A DNA stretch of 38,422 nucleotides from an uncultured Planctomycetales bacterium. GTDB lineage: Bacteria > Planctomycetota > UBA1135. The translations under genes and the position numbers were made by a program. Position 1 is the first letter of the stretch. Each line of letters starts with the position of its first letter. Below the pieces are notes generated by a model. That model ran no database searches, was not told where the DNA came from, and saw only the letters and a program-made list of their open reading frames with translations. Of this stretch, positions 3,792 through 38,206 are shown piece after piece. The stretch is from assembly GCA_964389745.1 (NCBI GenBank), contig CAYMFV010000001.1:1-38422 (forward strand). The letters are read 5' to 3'.

Positions 3792-4238
3792 ATGCTGTAC
3801 CGCTACAAGCCTGACGAGGGACGCAACGCCCGCCAGACCGCCTTCTGGGTGATCGAGGGGCTGATCGCCTATGGGTGCCTCACCCTGCGTGGCATGCTGG
3901 ACGGGAGCTATGCCCTACGCAAGCCCCTCCTGGAAGGCATGCAGGAGATCCCGATCCTCGGGACGACCCTGAACCTGTCCCTGCTGGTCGCCCTGCTGGT
4001 CTTCCTGGGCGGCACCTTCGCCTGGGTGCGCTTCCTGGCCCGGCCGAAGACGGCCGACCACCTGATCGAGGTGGAGGCGGAGCTGCGCAAGGTGACCTGG
4101 CCCTCTTTCAAGGAGGCCAGCAACTCCTCCATCGTCGTCATCGCCACGGTGCTGGTGCTGCTGCTCTTCTTCATGTTCGCGGACTTCCTCCTGGGCCGGG
4201 TCTTCGAGCTCATCCTGTGGCGGACGGTGGGGACCTGA
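3792..4238 (+). CDS. secE: Preprotein translocase subunit SecE
   Basis: 148-aa ORF in the canonical rpmG-secE-nusG position. It has the C-terminal motif EVEAELRKVTWPSFKE followed by a TM helix, plus extra N-terminal TM segments. Confidence 0.8.
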   Translation: MLYRYKPDEGRNARQTAFWVIEGLIAYGCLTLRGMLDGSYALRKPLLEGMQEIPILGTTLNLSLLVALLVFLGGTFAWVRFLARPKTADHLIEVEAELRKVTWPSFKEASNSSIVVIATVLVLLLFFMFADFLLGRVFELILWRTVGT

Positions 4239-4240
4239 CC

Positions 4241-4798
4241 ATGGGCATGGACTGGTACGTGGTCCGGGTTCCGACCAACCAGGAGGACCGGGTGCGAGAG
4301 ACCCTGGAGCGGCGCGTCAAGGCTGCCGGCCTCGAGCACCGCATCCCCCGGGTGCTGGTGCCCGTGGAGCGGGTGACCGAGATCAAGGCCGGGCGCAAGC
4401 GGGTCAAGACCAGCAAGATCTATCCCGGCTACCTGATGCTGCAGGCGGACCTGGGGGAGAAGGGCTCCGAGGATCCCGAGGACCAGGCGGTCTGGTTCGT
4501 CCTCCACGAGACGCCGGGCTTCAAGGACTTCGTCGGCGGCGGCGACTGGCCGGCGCCCATGAACGAGGAGGAGGTGCAGGAGATCCTGCGCCGCATGGAG
4601 CAGAGCGAGGCCGCACCACGCCTCGCCGTGCGCATCAAGCGCGGCGACCTGGTGCGCATCAAGGAGGGGCCCTTCGAGGGCTTCGACGGCAGCGTCGAGG
4701 AGCTCCTGGAGAGCCAGGGCAAGCTGCGGATCTCCGTCACCATCTTCGGCCGGGCAACCAGCGTGGAGATCGAGCACTGGCTCGTGGAACCCGTCTAG
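4241..4798 (+). CDS. nusG: Transcription termination/antitermination factor NusG
   Basis: In-frame ATG 2 nt after the secE stop gives MGMDWYVVRVPTNQEDRV...IYPGYLM...KGDLVRIKEGPFEGFDGSVEE (NGN plus KOW). Confidence 0.92.
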   Translation: MGMDWYVVRVPTNQEDRVRETLERRVKAAGLEHRIPRVLVPVERVTEIKAGRKRVKTSKIYPGYLMLQADLGEKGSEDPEDQAVWFVLHETPGFKDFVGGGDWPAPMNEEEVQEILRRMEQSEAAPRLAVRIKRGDLVRIKEGPFEGFDGSVEELLESQGKLRISVTIFGRATSVEIEHWLVEPV

Positions 4799-5311: not shown

Positions 5312-5991
5312 AGTGCAGCCGTCGTGTGCGGGAGAACATGGCCACGGTGGACCGGCAGCGCGTCTACCCCATGGCCGAGGCCTTCCGCACCCTCAAGAGC
5401 CTGCGCGGGGCCCGCTTCGACGAGACCGTGGAGGTGGCGGCCCGCCTGGGAGTGGATCCCAAGAAATCGGACCAGATGGTCCGGGGCGCCGTCAGCCTGC
5501 CCCATGGCCTGGGCAAGAGCGTTCGCGTGATCGCCTTCGCCGAGGGCCAGGCCGCCGACGAGGCCCGGGAGGCCGGGGCGATGGAGGTCGGCGGCGAGGA
5601 GCTGGCCAAGCGCATCCAGGAGGGTTGGATGGACTTCGACATCGTCGTCGCCCACCCGGCCATGATGCGGGTCGTCGGCCGTCTCGGCCGGGTCCTCGGA
5701 CCCCAGGGCAAGATGCCCTCGCCCAAGTCCGGCACCGTGACCCCGAATGTCGCCCAGGCGGTCCGGGAGTTCCTGGCTGGCAAGGTGGAGTTCCGGGTGG
5801 ACGCAGGCGGCAACGTGCACGTGCCCATCGGCAAGGCCTCCTTCCCCGAGGAGCAGCTGGTGGAGAACGCCCGGGCCTTCCTGGACTACCTGGTGACCCT
5901 GCGGCCGCCCACGGCCAAGGGCACCTACATCCGCAACGTCAGCGTCTCCACCTCCATGGGGCCCGGGCTCCGGGTCGAGTACAGCCACTAG
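5308..5991 (+). CDS. rplA: 50S ribosomal protein L1
   Basis: 227-aa ORF. Its start overlaps the rplK stop (ATGA). Contains [34 protein letters not shown]. Confidence 0.95.
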
Positions 5992-6002
5992 GGAGCGCCG
6001 CC

Positions 6003-6533
6003 ATGGTCAGCCAGCTCAATCGTTGGATCGTTCGCGAGTACGCCGAGTTCCTCCAGGGCCAGGACGGCGTGGTGGTGCTGGGCATGCACGGCCTCACCGT
6101 CGAGGAGGCCCAGGATCTGCGCCGCCGGGTGCGGAACTCCGGGGCCCGTCTCCAGGTCGTCCGGCGTCGTCTCGCCCGGCAGGTCTTCCGGGAGATCGGC
6201 ATCGAGCTGGACGAGGAGGTCTTCAACGGCCCCTGCGCCCTGCTGGTCGGGGATACCGACCAGGCCATCTCCGCCACGAAGGCCATCGAGGAGATGTGGC
6301 GCAAGGCCGCCGACAGGAAGATCGAGTACCGGGGGGCCTTCTTCGATGGCTCCGTGCTCGGCCCGGCCGAGGCCGCTCGCATCCCCACCATGCCCGACAA
6401 GCAGACCATGCGTGCCATGCTCTGCTCGGCCATTCTCGGTCCCGCCCGCATGCTCGCCACCGCGCTGCGGGAGGTGCCCGCCTCCACTGCCCGGGTGCTC
6501 CAGGCCCGGGCGGACCAGGAGGACCAGGCCTAG
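6003..6533 (+). CDS. rplJ: 50S ribosomal protein L10
   Basis: Internal ATG of ORF 5301..6533 gives a 176-aa L10-like sequence ([35 protein letters not shown]...) in canonical order between rplA and rplL. Confidence 0.9.
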
Positions 6534-15193: not shown

Positions 15194-15221
15194 TTGACCC
15201 GGGAGCCCGTTCGGGTAGACT
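15194..15221 (+). promoter_or_regulatory. Sigma70-type promoter candidate P2 (TTGACC-N16-TAGACT) upstream of rpsL
   Basis: TTGACC at 15194-15199, a 16-nt spacer, then TAGACT at 15216-15221, 50 nt before the rpsL ATG. Same architecture as P1 and P3. Confidence 0.45.
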
Positions 15222-16137: not shown

Positions 16138-16143
16138 CCACCG

Positions 16144-16173
16144 GGGGCCGCCCCGGCCCCTCCGGGCGGCCCC
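16144..16173 (+). other. 9-bp all-G:C stem-loop in the rpsG to Tsr3-like spacer
   Basis: GGGGCCGCC (16144-16152) pairs perfectly with GGCGGCCCC (16165-16173) around a 12-nt loop, with no U-tract. It may be an attenuator or processing/stability element. Confidence 0.4.
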
Positions 16174-16206
16174 TGGTGGGCCGCCCGGCGCCGTTTCCGG
16201 CCCGCC

Positions 16207-16674
16207 ATGCCCCGCCCCCAGGTCATCGTCCTGCGCCTGGACAAGGAGGACCGGCGCAAGTGCAGCCTGACGGCCCTGCGCCGCCGGCGCCCGGAAGGTT
16301 TCCGCTGGCTCGACTGCCGGCTCGGAGACCGGGTGGAGGTGGGGGAGGTGACCTTCCTCCATCCCAGGGGGGAGCTCCTGGGCCCGGCCGACGCCGGGCG
16401 CCCCCTGCTCCTGGTGGACTCCTCCTGGCGGGACCTGCCCCGGGTCCTCCGGGGGGTCGAGGGCGTCCTGCACCGCCGCCGGCTGCCGGCCGGCCTGCGC
16501 ACCGCCTACCCCCGGCGTTCCCGGACCTTTCCGGACCCGGTTGCGGGCCTGGCCAGCATCGAGGCCCTGCACGCCGCCCTGGCCCGGCTGGGCTGGCGAG
16601 AAGACGGCCTCCTCGAGGGCTACCACTGGCGGGAGCTCTGGCTGGAGCGGAACGCGGCCCTCCTGCGGGCCTAG
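16207..16674 (+). CDS. Tsr3-like / DTW-superfamily aminocarboxypropyl (acp) transferase homologue
   Basis: 155-aa ORF carrying LDKEDRRKCS, DSSW (nt 16417-16428), HRRRLP, LASIEAL and W-x-x-L-W-L-E-R-N-A-A-LL. By eye this is colinear with archaeal Tsr3 as I remember it. It lacks the N-terminal CxxC of TapT/YfiP. Its stop lies 11 nt before the EF-G-like start. Confidence 0.6.
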   Translation: MPRPQVIVLRLDKEDRRKCSLTALRRRRPEGFRWLDCRLGDRVEVGEVTFLHPRGELLGPADAGRPLLLVDSSWRDLPRVLRGVEGVLHRRRLPAGLRTAYPRRSRTFPDPVAGLASIEALHAALARLGWREDGLLEGYHWRELWLERNAALLRA

Positions 16675-16685
16675 AATCCCCGACC

Positions 16686-18749
16686 ATGGACCTGGGCGCC
16701 CTGCGCAACATCGGGATCGTCGCCCACATCGACGCCGGCAAGACCACGGTCACCGAGCGGTTCCTCTACTACACCGGGGTCGAGCACCGCATGGGCGAGG
16801 TCCACGAGGGCACGACGGTCATGGACTGGATGGCCGAGGAGCGGGAGCGGGGGATCACCATCACGGCCGCCGTCACCCGCTGCCCGTGGCGGGAGCACGT
16901 GGTCCAGCTCATCGACACCCCCGGGCACGTGGACTTCAGCGCCGAGGTGGCTCGCTCCCTCCGGGTCCTGGACGGAGCCGTGGTGGTGCTTTGCGCCGTC
17001 GCCGGCGTCCAGGCCCAGACCGAGACCGTCCTCCGCCAGGCCGAGCACTTCCACCTGCCCTGGCTGGCCTTCGTGAACAAGATGGACCGGGCCGGGGCCG
17101 ACTTCCTGGCGGCGGTCCGCTCCCTGCGGAAGCGCCTGGGCGCTCCGGCCGTCCCGGTCCAGCTGCCGGCCGGCAGCGGCCCGGAGCTGCAAGGGGTCCT
17201 GGACCTCCTGGAGCCGGGCCTGCTCCGCTGGCGGCCAGGCAGCGACGGCCGGGAGTACGCCCGGGAGCCCGTCCCAGAGGCCCTCTGGGAGGAGGTGGCG
17301 GCGGCCCGCCGGCGGCTGGTGGAGGCGGTGGCCGAGACCGACGAGGCCCTGCTGGACGCCTACCTGACCGCCGACGGCCTGGGGACGGCCGAGCTCCGGG
17401 CGGGCCTGCGCCGGGCGGTGGCCCGCAGGGATCTGGTCCCGGTCCTGTGCGGGGCGGCCCTGCGCAACGTCGGCATCCAGCCCCTCCTGGACGCGGTGGT
17501 GGAGTGGCTGCCGTCTCCCCTGGAGCGGCCGCCGGTCCGGGGCTGGCTGCCCGGGGACCCGGGCACCGAGGTCCTGCGCCATCCCCGGGAGGACGAGCCC
17601 TTCTGCGGCCTGGTCTTCAAGCTCCAGCACGACGCCCACGGGGTCCAGGCCTTCTGCCGGGTGTACAGCGGCCGCATCCGGGAGGGGGACCAGGTGCACA
17701 ACGCCCGGACCGGCCGGGCCGAGCGGGTGCAGCAGGTCCTCCTGGCCCACGCCGACCACCGGGAGCGCCTCCGGGAGGCCGGTCCCGGGGCGATCGTGGT
17801 CCTCACGGGCCTTCGCCAGGCGGCGACCGGCGACACCCTCCACGCCCGGGGGGCGCCCATCGCCCTGCACCCCATCGAGTTCCCGGAGCCGGTCATCCGC
17901 CAGAGCATCGAGCCCAGGAGCGTCGCCGACCGGGACCGCCTCCTGGCGGCCCTCGCCGCCCTGGACCGGGAGGACCCCACCCTCCGGGTGGAGGTGGACG
18001 AGGACTCGGGCCAGGCGGTCCTGGCCGGTCTGGGCGAGCTGCACCTGGAGGTGGCCCTGCACCGCCTGGCCCGGGACTTCCGGGTGAACGCCCGGGCGGG
18101 CCGGCCCCTGGTGGCCTACCGGGAGTCCATCCGGGAGGCCGCCGAGGCCGAGGGGCAGGCCCAGCGGCCCCTGGCCGAGGGCGGCTACCAGGTGGTCACC
18201 GCCCGGGTCCAGGTGGAGCCCGCCGACGTGGCCAGGCCGGAGCTGGAGGTGGCGGCGGACCTGGGGCTCCTGGAGCGCCCGGTCCGGGAGGCCTTCCTGG
18301 CCGAGGCCGCGAGCCTCCTGGACCGGGGCGGGGACCTCGGCTTCCCCCTGGCCCGGCTGCGGGCCACGGTCCGGGAGCTGGCCTGGCAGCCCTCGGGGGC
18401 GGCACCGGGGGCGGACCTCCTCCTGGGTGCGGTCTCCCGGGCCCTGGACCGGGCCTTCGACGGCCGGGCTCTCCTCCTGGAGCCGGTGATGGCCCTCCGG
18501 GTGGAGGTGCCCGAGGAGTTCCTGAGCGGGGTCCTGGCCGACCTCCAGGCCCGCCAGGCCGAGGTCGAGGATCTGGAGATCGCCGGGGGGCTCCGGCGGA
18601 TCCGGGCCCGGGTGCCCCTGGAGCGGATGTTCGCCTACTCCACCGACCTGCGCTCCCTGACCCAGGGCCGGGGGCAGTTCAGTCTGGAGCCCGCGGGCTA
18701 CCAGCCGGTCCCGCCGGAGCGAGCCCGGGGTCTCGGCCTGGCGGTCTAG
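16686..18749 (+). CDS. fusA: Elongation factor G family GTPase in the fusA position; divergent, with degenerate domain IV
   Basis: Internal ATG of ORF 15756..18749, 687 aa. It has AHIDAGKTT, RGITI, DTPGHVDF, NKMD, a G' insert, and domains II, III and V (TGDTL, EPVIRQSIEP, GELHLEV, YSTDLRSLTQGRG). The domain IV loops QSGGRGQYGH and H-x-VDSS are replaced by RPLAEGGYQVV and AWQPSGAAPG. Confidence 0.85.
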   Translation: MDLGALRNIGIVAHIDAGKTTVTERFLYYTGVEHRMGEVHEGTTVMDWMAEERERGITITAAVTRCPWREHVVQLIDTPGHVDFSAEVARSLRVLDGAVVVLCAVAGVQAQTETVLRQAEHFHLPWLAFVNKMDRAGADFLAAVRSLRKRLGAPAVPVQLPAGSGPELQGVLDLLEPGLLRWRPGSDGREYAREPVPEALWEEVAAARRRLVEAVAETDEALLDAYLTADGLGTAELRAGLRRAVARRDLVPVLCGAALRNVGIQPLLDAVVEWLPSPLERPPVRGWLPGDPGTEVLRHPREDEPFCGLVFKLQHDAHGVQAFCRVYSGRIREGDQVHNARTGRAERVQQVLLAHADHRERLREAGPGAIVVLTGLRQAATGDTLHARGAPIALHPIEFPEPVIRQSIEPRSVADRDRLLAALAALDREDPTLRVEVDEDSGQAVLAGLGELHLEVALHRLARDFRVNARAGRPLVAYRESIREAAEAEGQAQRPLAEGGYQVVTARVQVEPADVARPELEVAADLGLLERPVREAFLAEAASLLDRGGDLGFPLARLRATVRELAWQPSGAAPGADLLLGAVSRALDRAFDGRALLLEPVMALRVEVPEEFLSGVLADLQARQAEVEDLEIAGGLRRIRARVPLERMFAYSTDLRSLTQGRGQFSLEPAGYQPVPPERARGLGLAV

Positions 18750-18779: not shown

Positions 18780-18807
18780 TTGACCCTGGGCTGCCTACTG
18801 CTAGAAT
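18780..18807 (+). promoter_or_regulatory. Sigma70-type promoter candidate P3 (TTGACC-N16-TAGAAT) upstream of the S10 cluster
   Basis: TTGACC at 18780-18785, a 16-nt spacer, then TAGAAT at 18802-18807. It would give a leader of about 130 nt before the rpsJ ATG at 18948. Confidence 0.5.
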
Positions 18808-18947: not shown

Positions 18948-19253
18948 ATGGGGAATCGCATCCAGATCCGCCTCGAGGCCTACGACCACGAGGCCATCGA
19001 CCAGGCCACCGAATCCATCCTGGAGGCGGCGCGCCTGACCGGGGTCAAGGTGTCGGGACCGATCCCGCTGCCGACCCGCATCGAGCGGTACACGGTCCTC
19101 CGCTCGCCACACATCGACAAGAAGTCCCGGGAGCAGTTCGAGATCCGCACGCACAAGCGGCTCATGTACCTCCTGGACCCGACCCCCCAGACCGTCGATG
19201 CCCTCAACCGGCTGGTGCTCAGTGCAGGAGTGGACGTCCGCATCAAGGTCTGA
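18948..19253 (+). CDS. rpsJ: 30S ribosomal protein S10
   Basis: Internal ATG of ORF 18780..19253 (whose listed start is a TTG), 101 aa: [19 protein letters not shown]...[36 protein letters not shown]. Confidence 0.96.
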
Positions 19254-33349: not shown

Positions 33350-36300
33350 TAGACCGCGCCCGCTGCCGGAGCCTGTGTCCGGGAGCGGGCGCGCCCGTTT
33401 CGCGGCCGTCCGGAAACCACCCGGACCCGGCCCGGGCCCAGGACCGCTTCCAGGGACTGGACCAGGGAGCCCGACACGGCCACCTGCCACTCGCCCGAGG
33501 CCCGGAGCATCCGGGACTCGCCGTCCGGCCCCTCGTAGACGAAGCGGACCACCGAGCGGCCGGGGCAGGCCTTGAGGATGCGTGCCACCGCCTCCAGGGG
33601 CGGCTGGCTGCCCGCCAGGTGCAGCTCCAGGTCCCCCTGGAGATGGAGCTCCTGGCGCTCAGCGAGGGTCTCGATCCGCTCCACCCGGAGCTCCACCTCC
33701 TCGCCGTTGCTGCTCAGGACGCCGTGGAAGAGGCCAACCTGGTCCTCGACCACCATGTCCCGGCAGGCCTCGTAGGCCTCGGGCCAGACCAGGGCCGCCA
33801 CCGAGCCGTGGAGGTCCTCGATGCGCAGGCGGGCGTACTTCCGGGACGGGTCCTTTCGGGTCGGGCGCACCTGCACGGCGCTGGCGATGCCGGCCAGGGT
33901 CACCTCCTGGCCGTCGCCGGCGTCCTGGAGGTTGGCCGTGGTCCAGGGCGTGAGTCCCGCCAGGACGTCCCGGTAGGGATCCAGGGGATGCCGGGTGAGG
34001 TACAGGCCCAGGGACTCCTTCTCCATGGCCAGGGCCCGCTTGCGGTCCTCCTCGGTCACGGCGCCGGCGTCGGCCGGGCCGGTGCCCGGTGCCGGGGTCG
34101 AGGCCGGTTCCGGTCCGCCGTTCCCCGTGGCCGCCGCCGCGAAGAGCAGGCCCTGGCCCCGGCGCCGATCCTCGGCCTGCCGCTGGGCGATGCACAGGCT
34201 CTCCTCGAGGCCGTCCAGGAGGACCACCCGGTTCGGGTGGAAGGTGGCCAGGGCGCCGGCCTTCACCAGGCTCTCGAAGGTGGTCTTGTTGAAGCCCGCC
34301 GCCACCCCCTCGGCCAGGAAGTCGTCCTGATCGGTGTAGCGGCCCTCGGGGCGCTCCTCCCGGATGCGCACCAGGGCCTCGGCGGCGCCGGCGCCCACCC
34401 CCTTGACCGCGGCCAGGCCATAGCGGATGGCGTCGTCGGCCTCGACCCGGAAGCCCCTGCTGCTCCGCTGGATGCACGGCGGCAGCACCCGGAGCCCGTG
34501 CCGCCGGGCGTCCTCGATCAGCACCCGGAGCTTGTCGGTGTCGCTGGCCTCGTGGGTGAAGGTGGCGGCGTAGAACTCGGCCGGGTAGTGGGCCTTCATC
34601 CAGGCCGCCTGGTAGGTGACCAGGGCGTAGCCCGCGGAGTGGCTCTTGTTGAAGCCGTAGTCCGCGAACTTGACCATCATCTTCCAGATCTCCCGGGCGG
34701 TGGCCTCGGGAACGCCGCCGCCGATGGCTCCGTCCAGGAACTGGCGCTCGAAGCCCTCCATGAGGGAGCGCACCTTCTTGCCCATGGCCTTGCGCAGGGA
34801 GTCGGCCTCGGCCAGGGTGAAGCCGCCCATGCGCTGGGCCACGCGCATGATCTGCTCCTGGTAGATCAGCACCCCGTAGGTCTCCCGGAGGATCTCCTCG
34901 AGCATGGGGTGGGGGTAGCGGACCTCCTCCTGGCCGTGCTTCCGCCGAGCGTAGATCTCGTGCAGGCCCGAGCCCAGGGGCCCCGGCCGGAACAGGGCCA
35001 GGACGGCGATGATGTCCTCGAAGCAGCTCGGGCGGAGATCCGCCAGGAGCCGGCGCATGCCCCCGGACTCGAGCTGGAAGACGCCCTCGGTGTCGGCCCG
35101 GCAGAGGAGCTCGTAGACCGCCGGGTCGTCCAGGGGCAGGGCGTCCAGGTCCACCTGCACGTCGTGGCGCTCAGCCACCATGTGCACGGCCGTGTCCAGA
35201 ATGGTGAGGGTGCGCAGCCCCAGGAAGTCCATCTTCAGGAGACCGACCTGCTCGCAGGCCTTCATGTCCCACTGGGTGGTGACCACGTCGTCCTGCTTGG
35301 AGAGGGGCACCACCTCCTCGAGGGGCACGTCGGCGATGACCACCCCGGCGGCATGGACGCTGCTGTGCCGGGACAGGCCCTCGATGCGAGTGGCCAGGTC
35401 GAGCCAGTCCTTGTGCTTGTCGGAGCGCCCGGCCACGGCGGCCAGCTCCGGGTCCTCCTCCAGGACCCGGGCCAGGGAGACCTTGGGTCCCTCGGGCACC
35501 TTCTTCGCCACCTGGTCCACCTCGGCCAGGGGCAGGTCCAGGACCCGGGCCACGTCCCGGAGGGCGGCCCGGGCCTTCATCTTGCCGAAGGTGATGATCT
35601 GGCAGACCCGATCGTCGCCATAACGCTCCCGGACGTAGCGCAACATCTCCTCCCGCCGGTCCTTGCAGAAGTCGATGTCGATGTCCGGCATGGAGATCCG
35701 GGAGGGGTTCAGGAAACGCTCGAAGATCAGGTCGTAGCGCAGGGGATCGATGCGGGTGATGCCCAGGACGTAGGCAACGATGGAGCCTGCCGCCGAGCCC
35801 CGGCCGGGACCCACCGGGATGCCCTGCTCTCGGGCGTGGCGGACCAGGTCCCAGACGATCAGGAAGTAGGGCACGAAGCCCATCTCCTGGATGACCCGCA
35901 TCTCGTACTCCAGGCGCTCCCGGGCCTGCCCCGGTTGCTCCGGGTAGCAGCGGGCAAAGCCCTCCTCGCACAGCCGGCGGAAGTAGTCCTCGGGGCTGCT
36001 GCCGTCGGGGGGCTCGAAGCGGGGCAGGCGGTGGCGGCCCAGCTCCAGGCTCAGGTCCACCTGCTCGGCCACCTGGATGGTGTTGCGCAGGGCTTCGGGG
36101 AGGTCCCCGAAGATCCGGTGCATGTCCTCCCGGGTCCGGAAGAACAGGGTCTCGGTCTCCATGCGCCAGCGCTTGGGATCGTCCAGCTTGGCGCCGGTGT
36201 GGATGCACAGCAGGGCGTCCTGGGCCCGGCAGTCCTCGTGGCGGAGATAGTGAATATCGTTGGTCGCCACCAGGGGAGCGTCGACCCGGCTCCGGAGGGC

Positions 36301-36873
36301 CACCATGCCCTCGGTGAGGCGCTCCTGGGCCTCCATGCCGTTGCGCATCACCTCCAGGAAGAAGTGCTCCTGCCCGAACATGTCCTGGAGGAGGCCGGCC
36401 ATGGCCAGGGCGCCGTCCTGGTCGCCGGCCTGGAGCAGGCGGTTCACCGGGCCGCTCATGCAGCCCGAAAGGCAGGTCAGGCCCGCGGCGTGGCGGGAGA
36501 GGAGCTCCAGGTCGACCCTGGGCCGGTAGTGCTGCCCCTCCAGGTGGGCCCGGCTGACCAGGTGCAGGAGGTTGCGCCAGCCGGTGGCGTCCCGGGCCAG
36601 GAGGGTCAGGTGCCAGTAGGGGTTGGTGTTCCGGTCGTGGCGCCGGTGCATCGAGGCCCGGGCCACGTACACCTCGCAGCCCAGGATCGGGCGCACGTCC
36701 GCCTTCCGGCAGGCGTTGTAGAACTCGATGGCGCCGAAGAGGTTGCCGTGGTCGGTGATGGCCAGGGCCTGGTGGCCGTCCCGGACCGCCGCCTCCACCA
36801 GATCGGGGATGCGGTTGGCGCCGTCGAGGAGGGAGTACTCGGTGTGGACGTGGAGGTGGACGAAGGGTTCCAT
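33349..36873 (-). CDS. dnaE: DNA polymerase III subunit alpha
   Basis: ORF 33349..36891 (-). The listed start is a TTG. ATG at 36873 gives the canonical N-terminus MEPFVHLHVHTEYSLLDGA (PHP domain). Colinear with DnaE throughout, with no intein-like insertion. Confidence 0.95.
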   Translation of the reverse strand: MEPFVHLHVHTEYSLLDGANRIPDLVEAAVRDGHQALAITDHGNLFGAIEFYNACRKADVRPILGCEVYVARASMHRRHDRNTNPYWHLTLLARDATGWRNLLHLVSRAHLEGQHYRPRVDLELLSRHAAGLTCLSGCMSGPVNRLLQAGDQDGALAMAGLLQDMFGQEHFFLEVMRNGMEAQERLTEGMVALRSRVDAPLVATNDIHYLRHEDCRAQDALLCIHTGAKLDDPKRWRMETETLFFRTREDMHRIFGDLPEALRNTIQVAEQVDLSLELGRHRLPRFEPPDGSSPEDYFRRLCEEGFARCYPEQPGQARERLEYEMRVIQEMGFVPYFLIVWDLVRHAREQGIPVGPGRGSAAGSIVAYVLGITRIDPLRYDLIFERFLNPSRISMPDIDIDFCKDRREEMLRYVRERYGDDRVCQIITFGKMKARAALRDVARVLDLPLAEVDQVAKKVPEGPKVSLARVLEEDPELAAVAGRSDKHKDWLDLATRIEGLSRHSSVHAAGVVIADVPLEEVVPLSKQDDVVTTQWDMKACEQVGLLKMDFLGLRTLTILDTAVHMVAERHDVQVDLDALPLDDPAVYELLCRADTEGVFQLESGGMRRLLADLRPSCFEDIIAVLALFRPGPLGSGLHEIYARRKHGQEEVRYPHPMLEEILRETYGVLIYQEQIMRVAQRMGGFTLAEADSLRKAMGKKVRSLMEGFERQFLDGAIGGGVPEATAREIWKMMVKFADYGFNKSHSAGYALVTYQAAWMKAHYPAEFYAATFTHEASDTDKLRVLIEDARRHGLRVLPPCIQRSSRGFRVEADDAIRYGLAAVKGVGAGAAEALVRIREERPEGRYTDQDDFLAEGVAAGFNKTTFESLVKAGALATFHPNRVVLLDGLEESLCIAQRQAEDRRRGQGLLFAAAATGNGGPEPASTPAPGTGPADAGAVTEEDRKRALAMEKESLGLYLTRHPLDPYRDVLAGLTPWTTANLQDAGDGQEVTLAGIASAVQVRPTRKDPSRKYARLRIEDLHGSVAALVWPEAYEACRDMVVEDQVGLFHGVLSSNGEEVELRVERIETLAERQELHLQGDLELHLAGSQPPLEAVARILKACPGRSVVRFVYEGPDGESRMLRASGEWQVAVSGSLVQSLEAVLGPGRVRVVSGRPRNGRARSRTQAPAAGAV

Positions 36874-36930
36874 GCCGGGAAGCGGGCCCAATCTACCCGG
36901 CCAGGCGGGCGGATGCGACCGCCGGCGCCG

Positions 36931-38148
36931 TCAACCCGCCGCCGGGCGGGCGCCGAAGCTCTCGCCCGCACGCACGAGGCGGTCCCGCACCCGGGCGAAG
37001 GCTCCCAGGAAGCGCTCCAGGTGCTCCTCGGTATGGGTGGCCATGAAGGAGCAGCGCAGCAGGTCCATTCCCGGCGGCACCCCCGGCGAGGTGACGGCAT
37101 TGACGAACACACCCTCTTCGAGCAGCGCCTTCCAGAAGCGGAACGTGTGCTCCCGGTTGCCCAGGATCACCGGCACGATGGGGCTCTCCGACGGGCCGGT
37201 GTCGAAGCCGAGTTCCTGGAGCCCTTCCCGGGCCTGGGCCGCCAGGGCCAGAACCCGGGTCCGGCGCTCGGGCTCGGTGCGGATGATCTCCAGGCACTTC
37301 AGGGCCGCGGCACAGATGGCCGGCGGCGTGCTGGCCGAGAAGATCATCGTCCGTGCGTGGTGGCGCATGTACTCCACCACGTCCCGGGGCCCGCCACAGA
37401 AGCCGCCGATGCCCGCCAGGGACTTGGAGAAGGTGCCCATGATCAGGTCCACCTCCTCGTCCAGGCCGAAGTGGTCCGGCGTGCCCGCGCCCCGGTCCCC
37501 GAAGACGCCGAAGGAGTGGGCGTCGTCGACCAGCACCCGGGCGCCGTACTGCCGGGCCAGGCGCACAATCTCGGGCAGCTGGGCCAGCTCCCCGGTCATG
37601 CTGAACAGGCCGTCGGTGACCACCAGCATGGCCCGGCCCCCGCCGGCGGCCAGGTGCTCCTCCAGGGCCGCCATGTCCGCGTGGCGGAACTTGCGCACCT
37701 CGGCGAAGGAGAGCCGGCAGCCATCGACGATGGAGGCGTGGTTCTCCCGGTCGGAGAGGACCAGCTCGTCCCGGCCCATCAGGGCCTGGATGACGCCCAG
37801 GCAGGTGTGGTAGCCGGTGGAGAAGACCAGGGCCGCCTCCTTCTGGAGGATCTCGGCCAGGCGGGCCTCGAGCTCCAGGTGGAGGTTCAGGGTCCCGTTC
37901 AGGAAGCGGCTGCCGGTGCAGCCGGTCCCGAAGCGGGCCAGGGCCTCCTGGGCGGCGGCGATGACCCGGGGATCGTGGGTCAGGCCCAGGTAGTTGTTCG
38001 AGCCCGCCATGATCACCCGCCGGCCGTGCAGCAGCACCTCCGTCCCCTCCGAGACCTCGATGGGCTGGAAATAGGGGTAGAGGCCGGCCTGCTGGACGGC
38101 GTGGTAGGGCTGGGGGCCCCGGCATTTCGCGAATACGTCCCGGGCCAT
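36931..38148 (-). CDS. PLP-dependent alpha-oxoamine synthase, serine palmitoyltransferase-like subgroup (family also includes BioF and Kbl)
   Basis: ORF 36931..38223 (-) trimmed to ATG 38148 (MARDVFAK...), because the longer form would overlap the divergent gene. Motifs: GSNNYLGL, GSRFLNGT, HASIVDGC, DDAHS, and GTFSKS (PLP lysine). Confidence 0.8.
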   Translation of the reverse strand: MARDVFAKCRGPQPYHAVQQAGLYPYFQPIEVSEGTEVLLHGRRVIMAGSNNYLGLTHDPRVIAAAQEALARFGTGCTGSRFLNGTLNLHLELEARLAEILQKEAALVFSTGYHTCLGVIQALMGRDELVLSDRENHASIVDGCRLSFAEVRKFRHADMAALEEHLAAGGGRAMLVVTDGLFSMTGELAQLPEIVRLARQYGARVLVDDAHSFGVFGDRGAGTPDHFGLDEEVDLIMGTFSKSLAGIGGFCGGPRDVVEYMRHHARTMIFSASTPPAICAAALKCLEIIRTEPERRTRVLALAAQAREGLQELGFDTGPSESPIVPVILGNREHTFRFWKALLEEGVFVNAVTSPGVPPGMDLLRCSFMATHTEEHLERFLGAFARVRDRLVRAGESFGARPAAG

Positions 38149-38206
38149 GCCCCTGCCATTGTGCGGGCGCGGGCCCGCTCGGTCCAGTGCTCCTAGAATC
38201 CGCGCC

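Follow-up and report, generated by a model that had tools for sequence, protein, structure and literature searches.

Why does a planctomycete carry, between its genes for ribosomal protein S7 (rpsG) and elongation factor G (EF-G; fusA), a gene whose product resembles the rRNA-modifying enzyme Tsr3? The question is raised by a 38,422-nt stretch of contig CAYMFV010000001.1 (assembly GCA_964389745.1) from an uncultured Planctomycetales bacterium; the whole of this stretch is called the window below. An initial annotation had placed a 155-aa open reading frame (ORF) at this junction, 69 nt from the rpsG stop codon and 11 nt from the EF-G ATG, and had proposed that it encodes a Tsr3-type aminocarboxypropyl (acp) transferase. 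The coordinates were borne out, and we find that the protein is a Tsr3 homologue, which belongs to a sister family distinct from Tsr3 proper.

Long shadow ORFs fill all frames of GC-rich DNA, so the length of the ORF is by itself no proof of a gene. However, its GC content at third codon positions (GC3) is 0.94, compared to 0.91–0.97 in the neighbouring genes and 0.59–0.73 in the overlapping shadow ORFs, and the protein is conserved across many genomes. It is therefore a real gene, and the reading of 16207–16674 as a spurious ORF was rejected. No recognisable Shine-Dalgarno sequence was found 5' of the gene, and the neighbouring genes have none either. The encoded protein is strongly basic (28 Arg, net charge of about +10). 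All the motifs on which the initial annotation had relied were found: LDKEDRRKCS at residue 11, DSSW at residue 71 (nt 16417–16428), HRRRLP at residue 89, LASIEAL at residue 115 and LWLERNAALL at residue 144. Cys19 and Cys37 are the only cysteines and there is no CxxC motif, in line with the reported lack of the cysteine cluster of TapT (YfiP).

Sequence and fold relate the protein to Tsr3

Searched as a single sequence, the protein matched only Tsr3 in the PDB (5apg, E 0.007), only PF04034 (Ribo_biogen_C) in Pfam (20.7 bits, under the gathering cutoff of 29.9) and only DUF367/Tsr3 models in NCBIfam (NF002621, 27.4 against a cutoff of 152; NF053630, 23.1 against 300). The family call by profile hidden Markov models thus falls under the curated cutoffs when made from one protein, but it stands on a full-length profile match to solved Tsr3. 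For this comparison, 47 members of the planctomycete branch of the family were aligned (alignment A1), and this alignment served as the basis for the profile, the hhalign comparisons and the structure model. The A1 profile matched VdTsr3 (5apg) with an E value of 5.3e-11 and SsTsr3 (5ap8) with 1.5e-4. The whole-length colinearity with archaeal Tsr3 that had been noted by eye is confirmed by hhalign, which aligned A1 to VdTsr3 over the full length (97.6%, E 3.9e-12, 138 columns). PF04034 was matched by 47 of the 47 A1 members, whereas the Pfam DTW model (PF03942) was matched by two, weakly. Against Escherichia coli TapT, hhalign gave 0.3% and spanned only the D-x-x-W motif.

The AlphaFold (AF2) model computed from A1 has a predicted local distance difference test score (pLDDT) of 92.8 and a predicted template modelling score (pTM) of 0.89, and shows a SPOUT-like α/β fold with five strands. 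A Foldseek search of the PDB with this model returned significant matches only to the two Tsr3 structures, 5apg (TM score 0.73, E 6e-8) and 5ap8 (TM score 0.61); TapT (9kyt) ranked seventh and was non-significant (E 0.29, TM score 0.51). TapT has been described as having four strands and a zinc finger formed by C31, C34, C41 and C43 (PMC12630136).

The protein thus shares with Tsr3 (VdTsr3, SsTsr3, yeast Tsr3 and human TSR3) a single domain of about 150–185 residues with a five-stranded SPOUT-like fold, the D-x-S-W motif with its catalytic aspartate and methyl-burying tryptophan, the residues that contact S-adenosylmethionine (SAM) and, judged by alignment, part of a basic RNA-binding patch. 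Its gene, like that of Tsr3 in several archaea, also clusters with ribosomal genes. It differs in being only about 28% identical, in its bacterial host and separate clade, and in an invariant insert motif of its own, T-A-Y-P-R-x-S/Q...D-P-x-x-G-L-A-S. With TapT and with DTWD1/DTWD2, which form acp3U47 and acp3U20/20a in tRNA, it shares the superfamily, the D-x-T/S-W motif and, as predicted, the chemistry of SAM-dependent acp transfer. It departs from those enzymes in lacking the N-terminal zinc finger, in having a fifth strand and in the basic residues on its surface.

Active-site and RNA-binding residues

To map functional residues, we used HMMER alignments to VdTsr3 together with the roles assigned by Meyer et al. 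2016 (PMC4872110). In VdTsr3, D70 is the proposed catalytic base, and W73 buries the methyl group of SAM, such that acp rather than methyl is transferred (PMC4872110). The aligned residues of the window protein are D71 and W74. The methyl pocket residue A76 is replaced by L77. At the SAM contacts, T19 corresponds to S20, L45 and P47 to L51 and P53, L93 to L93, L110 to L115, T112 to S117 and A115 to A120. Among the 47 A1 members, D71, S73, W74, S20, L51, L115, S117 and A120 are invariant.

The basic residues considered for helix-31 binding in VdTsr3 were R9, K17, K22, R25, K74 and R91. By alignment alone, R9, K17, K74 and R91 correspond to R10, K18, R75 and R91 of the window protein and are conserved, whereas the equivalent of K22 is Ala or Pro in the A1 family. 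The basic RNA-binding residues of Tsr3 have been reported as non-conserved in TapT (PMC7026641). With considerable confidence, we predict from these residues that the protein is a SAM-dependent acp transferase. Because the active-site and SAM residues as well as the RNA-binding basic residues are kept, and because the protein is very basic, a uridine in RNA is highly likely to be the acceptor.

A bacterial family named in 2014

At E ≤ 1e-3, a collection of 5.8 billion proteins contained 233 relatives of the window protein, nearly all from metagenome-assembled genomes (MAGs) of Planctomycetota. Many carry a precomputed PF04034 match, and some are labelled ‘pre-rRNA-processing protein TSR3’ or ‘DUF367 domain-containing protein’ (JGI, NCBI). 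An exhaustive profile search recovered 469 clusters (50% identity) at E ≤ 1e-3 and 299 at E ≤ 1e-10, which marks a sizeable bacterial family of its own. In GTDB, sampled at one genome per species, 271 species-representative genomes encode a relative. The window protein is 46–76% identical to relatives in at least 80 species-level genomes, with a median of 58% in syntenic loci. The top 120 hits of further homology searches included no relative from a cultured organism.

A second branch (alignment A2) comprises Chlamydiota and a few entries labelled Verrucomicrobia. It is colinear with A1 over the whole length (hhalign 100%, E 1e-39), and the two branches have in common the motifs K-K-C-S-L, D-x-[ST]-W, R-x-L-P, T-A-Y-P-R and G-L-A-S-[IV]-E-A-L. 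Two apparent fusions, P0243 (522 aa; GT9 plus the domain) and P0362 (242 aa; the domain plus TonB_C), are probable gene-calling or assembly artefacts.

Matched by description, size and hosts, the window protein almost certainly belongs to the ‘pc1599’ family of the TDD superfamily. This family was named by Burroughs and Aravind in 2014 and, in the parts of that paper accessible to us, is assigned mainly to Planctomycetes–Verrucomicrobia–Chlamydiae (PVC) bacteria (PMC4275035). The family is described as made up of bacterial single-domain proteins (148–180 aa), and the same parts list 12 proteins of 148–235 aa from Planctomyces maris, P. brasiliensis, Schlesneria, Protochlamydia, Parachlamydia, Waddlia, Simkania, Coraliomargarita and others; they predict an RNase function for pc1599 and give neighbourhoods only for archaeal TSR3 and DTWD2 (PMC4275035). 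Like the listed proteins, the window protein is a single TDD domain from a PVC host; its family includes a chlamydial branch, and it stands apart from both Tsr3 and DTWD. The str-operon position, the coupling to fusA and the RnpA fusions described below are absent from the 2014 account as far as it was accessible (PMC4275035). Beyond that paper, we found no mention of pc1599 in the searchable literature. TSR3 orthologues have been stated to be ‘not in bacteria’ (PMC6895100). The view of Tsr3 as an archaeal and eukaryotic family, which the initial annotation had adopted, is inaccurate, since a PVC family was named in 2014 and the databases label relatives as TSR3 or DUF367.

A clade-wide position in the str operon

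The synteny sample consisted of the best 80 loci of the 271 carrier genomes, all of them MAGs and nearly all labelled Planctomycetota. The Tsr3-like gene (X) was found in the order rpoC-rpsL-rpsG-X-fusA-rpsJ-rplC in 80 of 80 loci. In 65 of 74 testable loci, rpsG lies at most 400 nt upstream of X, and in 68 of 73, fusA lies at most 400 nt downstream. What had been described as an insertion into the normally invariant rpsL-rpsG-fusA junction is therefore a clade-wide arrangement and no isolated event. As had been surmised, we found no account of this str-operon position in the searchable literature.

Adjacency to fusA is interrupted at L042 (tsr3 5514–5966, rpsJ from 6154) and at L059 (tsr3 6001–6438, followed by membrane fusion protein (MFP) and resistance-nodulation-division (RND) efflux genes). 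In these two planctomycete lineages, the Tsr3-like gene has stayed behind rpsG, but the str operon no longer holds fusA, which was relocated or lost. In a second subclade (L048, L050, L051, L052, L055, L058, L063 and L066), both junctions of the gene, with rpsG and with fusA, are hot-spots of insertion. The inserted genes encode Ser/Thr-kinase-like, Fic-like and signal-peptide proteins, a GT39-like membrane protein, a FAD-dependent protein and an efflux pump. Because they are unrelated to one another, we discarded them as uninformative.

The two spacers that flank the Tsr3-like gene differ. Between X and fusA, the median length is 13 nt, and 1 of 72 loci shows a hairpin followed by a T-run. 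Between rpsG and X, the median is 82 nt, and a GC hairpin with a T-run is present in 29 of 66 loci, 20 of these with at least five T; such structures occur mostly in the subclade of the window itself. GC-rich hairpins after rpsG are found in loci L001, L003, L009, L016, L020–L023, L027, L029–L031, L033 and L035–L039. In the window, this spacer (16138–16206) can form a strong hairpin (16138–16179) or, mutually exclusive with it, an alternative terminator-like hairpin (16162–16188) that is followed by CGCCGTTTCC. The predicted fold has an energy of −54 kcal/mol, with a z-score of only −1.8 relative to shuffled sequences, and the T-run is degenerate. A consensus scan placed promoter-like sites only before rpsL and rpsJ (2 sites, 0.1 expected). 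Together, these features suggest that transcription is attenuated, or leakily terminated, within the str operon after rpsG. The initial annotation had the gene co-transcribed with those for S12, S7 and EF-G: the coupling to fusA is indeed tight, but the link to rpsL and rpsG is uncertain because of the terminator-like hairpin that follows rpsG in many relatives.

The EF-G to which the gene is coupled is itself unusual. Its product contains all EF-G domains (Pfam) but passes no NCBIfam cutoff, reaching 658.8 with TIGR00484 (cutoff 659.4). Relatives are 51% identical to it at the median, a lower value than for the Tsr3-like protein (58%) and one that S12 and S10 (87–89%) far exceed. The local GC content of the gene is 0.77, compared to 0.65–0.70 in ribosomal protein genes. 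The best PDB matches are canonical EF-G structures (about 570 bits), followed by mitochondrial EF-G2 (459), mitochondrial EF-G1 (417) and Thermus EF-G-2 (279). An assignment to spdEFG1, of which a KDG insertion in switch I is a feature (PMC3150367), was ruled out because switch I of this EF-G has no such insertion. As read in this one contig, the EF-G is divergent and closest to canonical EF-G, and the term ‘paralogue’ of the initial annotation is at best a putative label.

Position 966 of 16S rRNA as the candidate target

Which uridine does the enzyme modify? By analogy with Tsr3, SAM would be bound with its methyl group buried under Trp74, leaving the acp arm exposed, and Asp71 would serve as the general base. 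A uridine in some RNA that takes part in translation would then receive the acp group at its N3. For the window enzyme, we favour, at a little under even chances, U966 (E. coli numbering) in the helix 31 loop of 16S rRNA as the target; the reaction would yield acp3U966 late in 30S assembly, in the way that Tsr3 acts on small-subunit rRNA in archaea and eukaryotes. If acp-transferase activity is taken as given, the analogy makes this site an even bet. The nucleotide at position 966 contacts P-site tRNA. To our knowledge, bacteria have neither Nep1 nor the small nucleolar ribonucleoproteins of eukaryotes, so the product would be acp3U and not m1acp3-pseudouridine. The Tsr3-like gene would form one tight expression unit with the EF-G gene, behind a highly expressed rpsL-rpsG pair; the leaky terminator-like hairpin would probably set the level of the unit below that of the pair. 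If the rRNA is the substrate, the enzyme would share its helix-31 loop site with RsmD and RsmB, the methyltransferases that form m2G966 and m5C967 in E. coli 16S rRNA. Those are unrelated Rossmann-fold enzymes, which transfer methyl rather than acp, to G966 and C967.

Bacterial 16S rRNA is said to carry a methylated G where eukaryotes have m1acp3-pseudouridine (PMC7026641). The window contains no rRNA gene in its 38,422 nt, and we therefore scanned the metagenome collection with a helix-31 pattern. At least 120 records of bacterial-type 16S with T at position 966 were found (L081–L200), mostly as stand-alone, full-length 16S sequences of 1.5 kb, none of them connected to a carrier genome. The commonest loops among the matches listed are AUUCAACG, AAUCAACG and AGUCUACG, all of which keep U966-C967; the first is presumably identical to the archaeal loop. 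For a crude assignment, which has no G966 baseline, we used probe sites from the literature on fluorescence in situ hybridization and quantitative PCR (EUB338-I/II/III, PLA46, PLA886 and a pan-Chlamydiales probe). By this measure, 22 of the matches listed are Planctomycetota-like (PLA46, PLA886 or EUB338-II with 0–1 mismatch). Their loops are AGUCUACG and AAUCAACG, and they keep U966-C967 as in archaea and eukaryotes. A further 34 of the matches listed have the EUB338-III (Verrucomicrobia-type) site and 64 are other bacteria-like, while the pan-Chlamydiales probe identified no convincing Chlamydiales among them. U966 is thus real in bacteria, including 16S with Planctomycetes probe signatures, and is not restricted to the PVC group. 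The frequent occurrence and taxonomic diversity of these sequences are at odds with the common statement that bacteria have G966.

The closeness of the planctomycete branch to Tsr3, its retained Tsr3 RNA-binding residues and the existence of U966-type 16S all favour 16S U966 as the target. Mild extra support comes from the comparison of the branches, since A1 is nearer to Tsr3 (5e-11 against 5apg) than the chlamydial A2 (0.0085). Several observations weigh against an rRNA target. The protein scores under every curated Tsr3 cutoff of Pfam and NCBIfam, and no 16S gene is tied to any carrier genome. Many U966-type 16S genes, moreover, do not look PVC-like, which makes their existence compatible with an rRNA target but non-specific. 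The remaining observations come from the chlamydial branch and point to another kind of RNA.

A possible tRNA target and the chlamydial branch

The enzyme could instead be a tRNA acp transferase, a PVC-specific analogue of TapT and the DTWD proteins that forms acp3U in the variable loop or the D-loop; its place in the str operon would then reflect co-regulation of translation genes. We consider this less likely than a 16S target, but the strongest of the alternatives. According to a 2026 review, acp3U in bacteria is known only from tRNA, where it is made by TapT (PMC13602947). No acp3U enzymes other than TapT and the DTWD proteins have been demonstrated in bacteria. TapT orthologues have been given for five phyla, none of them in the PVC group (PMC6895100). 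There is thus room for a tRNA acp3U enzyme in PVC bacteria, a further point against rRNA.

The chlamydial neighbourhood points to tRNA maturation. The Tsr3-like gene lies a few kilobases downstream of rpmH-rnpA, in a conserved block that consists of rpsN and rpmJ on the opposite strand, rpmH-rnpA and a uvrD-like gene, a thioredoxin-like gene on the opposite strand and then the Tsr3-like gene. In two of five lineages, the gene is directly 5' of a PolyA_pol/CCA-type nucleotidyltransferase gene, which follows after 41–48 nt in L202 (10001–11810) and L206 (10001–11808); in a third lineage, L207 (10001–13251), the distance is 1.5 kb. The domains of the downstream gene, PolyA_pol and PolyA_pol_RNAbd, identify a CCA-adding or PcnB-type enzyme. 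In three cluster representatives (P0285, P0274 and P0376), the Tsr3-like domain is fused in frame to RnpA (PF00825) with the family motifs intact, which favours a tRNA target, as does the block itself with rnpA and the CCA-type enzyme. Chlamydial members also score on Pfam DTW, and A2 reaches 63% against TapT over the motif region. The P0274 fusion lies at L205 6001–6792, with ybeY divergently upstream.

This context is not specific to tRNA, however, because rnpA itself travels with ribosomal protein genes (rpmH, rpsN and rpmJ). The extensive synteny of chlamydial genomes moreover reduces the weight of gene neighbourhood as evidence, and fusions to RnpA are rare (2 among the top 120 chlamydial relatives). 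The planctomycete branch resembles TapT in nothing past the D-x-x-W motif (hhalign 0.3%), and its protein has no zinc finger and a Tsr3-type five-stranded sheet. The basic RNA-binding residues of Tsr3, which are absent in TapT, are kept in the family.

Other explanations

Transfer of acp, or of another SAM-derived group, to a different substrate is improbable. Such a substrate could be another uridine in 16S or 23S rRNA, a small RNA or, by loose analogy with diphthamide, the adjacent EF-G; diphthamide on archaeal and eukaryotic EF-2 is derived from acp. The tight coupling to fusA, with a spacer that measures 11 nt here and 13 nt at the median and that carries a hairpin in 1 of 72 loci, and the rapid evolution of the EF-G, which at 51% median identity diverges more than the Tsr3-like protein at 58% and falls under all NCBIfam cutoffs, would fit an enzyme that acts on its neighbour. 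However, L042 and L059 keep the Tsr3-like gene without an adjacent fusA, the chlamydial homologues lie away from fusA, the RNA-binding residues are conserved in a very basic protein, and we know of no TDD enzyme that acts on a protein. EF-G itself is thus hardly credible as the substrate.

Very improbable, too, is a loss of catalysis that would leave an RNA-binding assembly factor or chaperone, or a non-functional ORF: the low curated Tsr3 scores and the missing Shine-Dalgarno sequence would fit, but the catalytic Asp, the Trp and the SAM contacts are invariant in the 47 A1 members and in the chlamydial branch, GC3 is 0.94, relatives occur in at least 271 species representatives and the neighbouring genes also have no Shine-Dalgarno sequence.

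Implications

Already known are the naming of the bacterial family in 2014 and the annotation of relatives as TSR3 or DUF367 in databases. Four findings are new relative to the searchable literature: that the str-operon position is kept strictly across the clade; that the gene is tightly coupled to a fast-evolving EF-G and preceded by a terminator-like hairpin; that some chlamydial members are fused to RnpA or neighbour a CCA-type enzyme gene; and that U966-type 16S sequences with Planctomycetes probe signatures exist. The most far-reaching reading is that Planctomycetes, and perhaps other PVC bacteria, bear acp3U966, installed by an ancient bacterial sister of Tsr3 that is coupled to a fast-evolving EF-G; we regard this combined reading as possible rather than probable.

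If it is true, bacterial ribosomes would carry an archaeal/eukaryotic-style modification at a P-site contact that is unreported in them, and the helix-31 acp group would either predate the split between bacteria and archaea or have moved between domains. The textbook m2G at this bacterial site would then be lineage-specific, and the decoration of the P-site rRNA loop across domains, together with its ancestry, would have to be viewed anew. If the target is tRNA instead, the family would supply the missing acp3U enzyme of the PVC phyla. With the intact active site of a large bacterial sister family, its fixed place beside EF-G in one planctomycete clade and the existence of U966-type 16S, the bioinformatic note of 2014 can now be turned into a testable hypothesis, namely that some bacteria contain acp3U966. 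Cultured carriers, Gimesia and Rubinisphaera, exist according to the accessible part of the 2014 list (PMC4275035).

Features of the locus

A translation supercluster of high GC content (about 70%) fills the window. It comprises aroC, four tRNA genes, tuf, nusG, rplKAJL, rpoB and rpoC, the str operon, and the S10, spc and alpha operons. The features around the Tsr3-like gene are collected in Table 1.

Table 1 Features of the str operon around the Tsr3-like gene, in window coordinates
Feature	Coordinates	Strand	Basis and remarks
Sigma-70-like promoter candidate before rpsL, TTGACC-16-TAGACT	15194..15221	+	Consensus match only
rpsL (S12), 123 aa	15272..15643	+	ORF; median 87% identity to relatives in syntenic loci
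rpsG (S7), 157 aa	15664..16137	+	Sequence, translation, synteny
GC-rich spacer between rpsG and the Tsr3-like gene, 69 nt	16138..16206	+	Fold prediction; candidate attenuator or leaky terminator
Tsr3-like gene, pc1599-type, TDD superfamily, 155 aa, ATG start	16207..16674	+	Predicted SAM-dependent aminocarboxypropyl transferase
fusA-like EF-G gene, 687 aa, divergent	16686..18749	+	Domain matches, synteny
Sigma-70-like promoter candidate before rpsJ, TTGACC-16-TAGAAT with TG	18780..18807	+	Consensus match only
rpsJ (S10), start of the S10 operon	18948..19253	+	ORF, synteny

Two further ORFs of the window deserve mention. The NusG ORF (3875–4795) encodes 307 aa when read from the first GTG, and the NusG domain begins at residue 125; the ORF either has a long N-terminal extension or is mis-started upstream. 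A 1525-aa ORF at 33619–38193 (+) has no Pfam match at E ≤ 1e-5; it could encode a large protein of a new kind or be one of the long spurious ORFs that GC-rich DNA yields.

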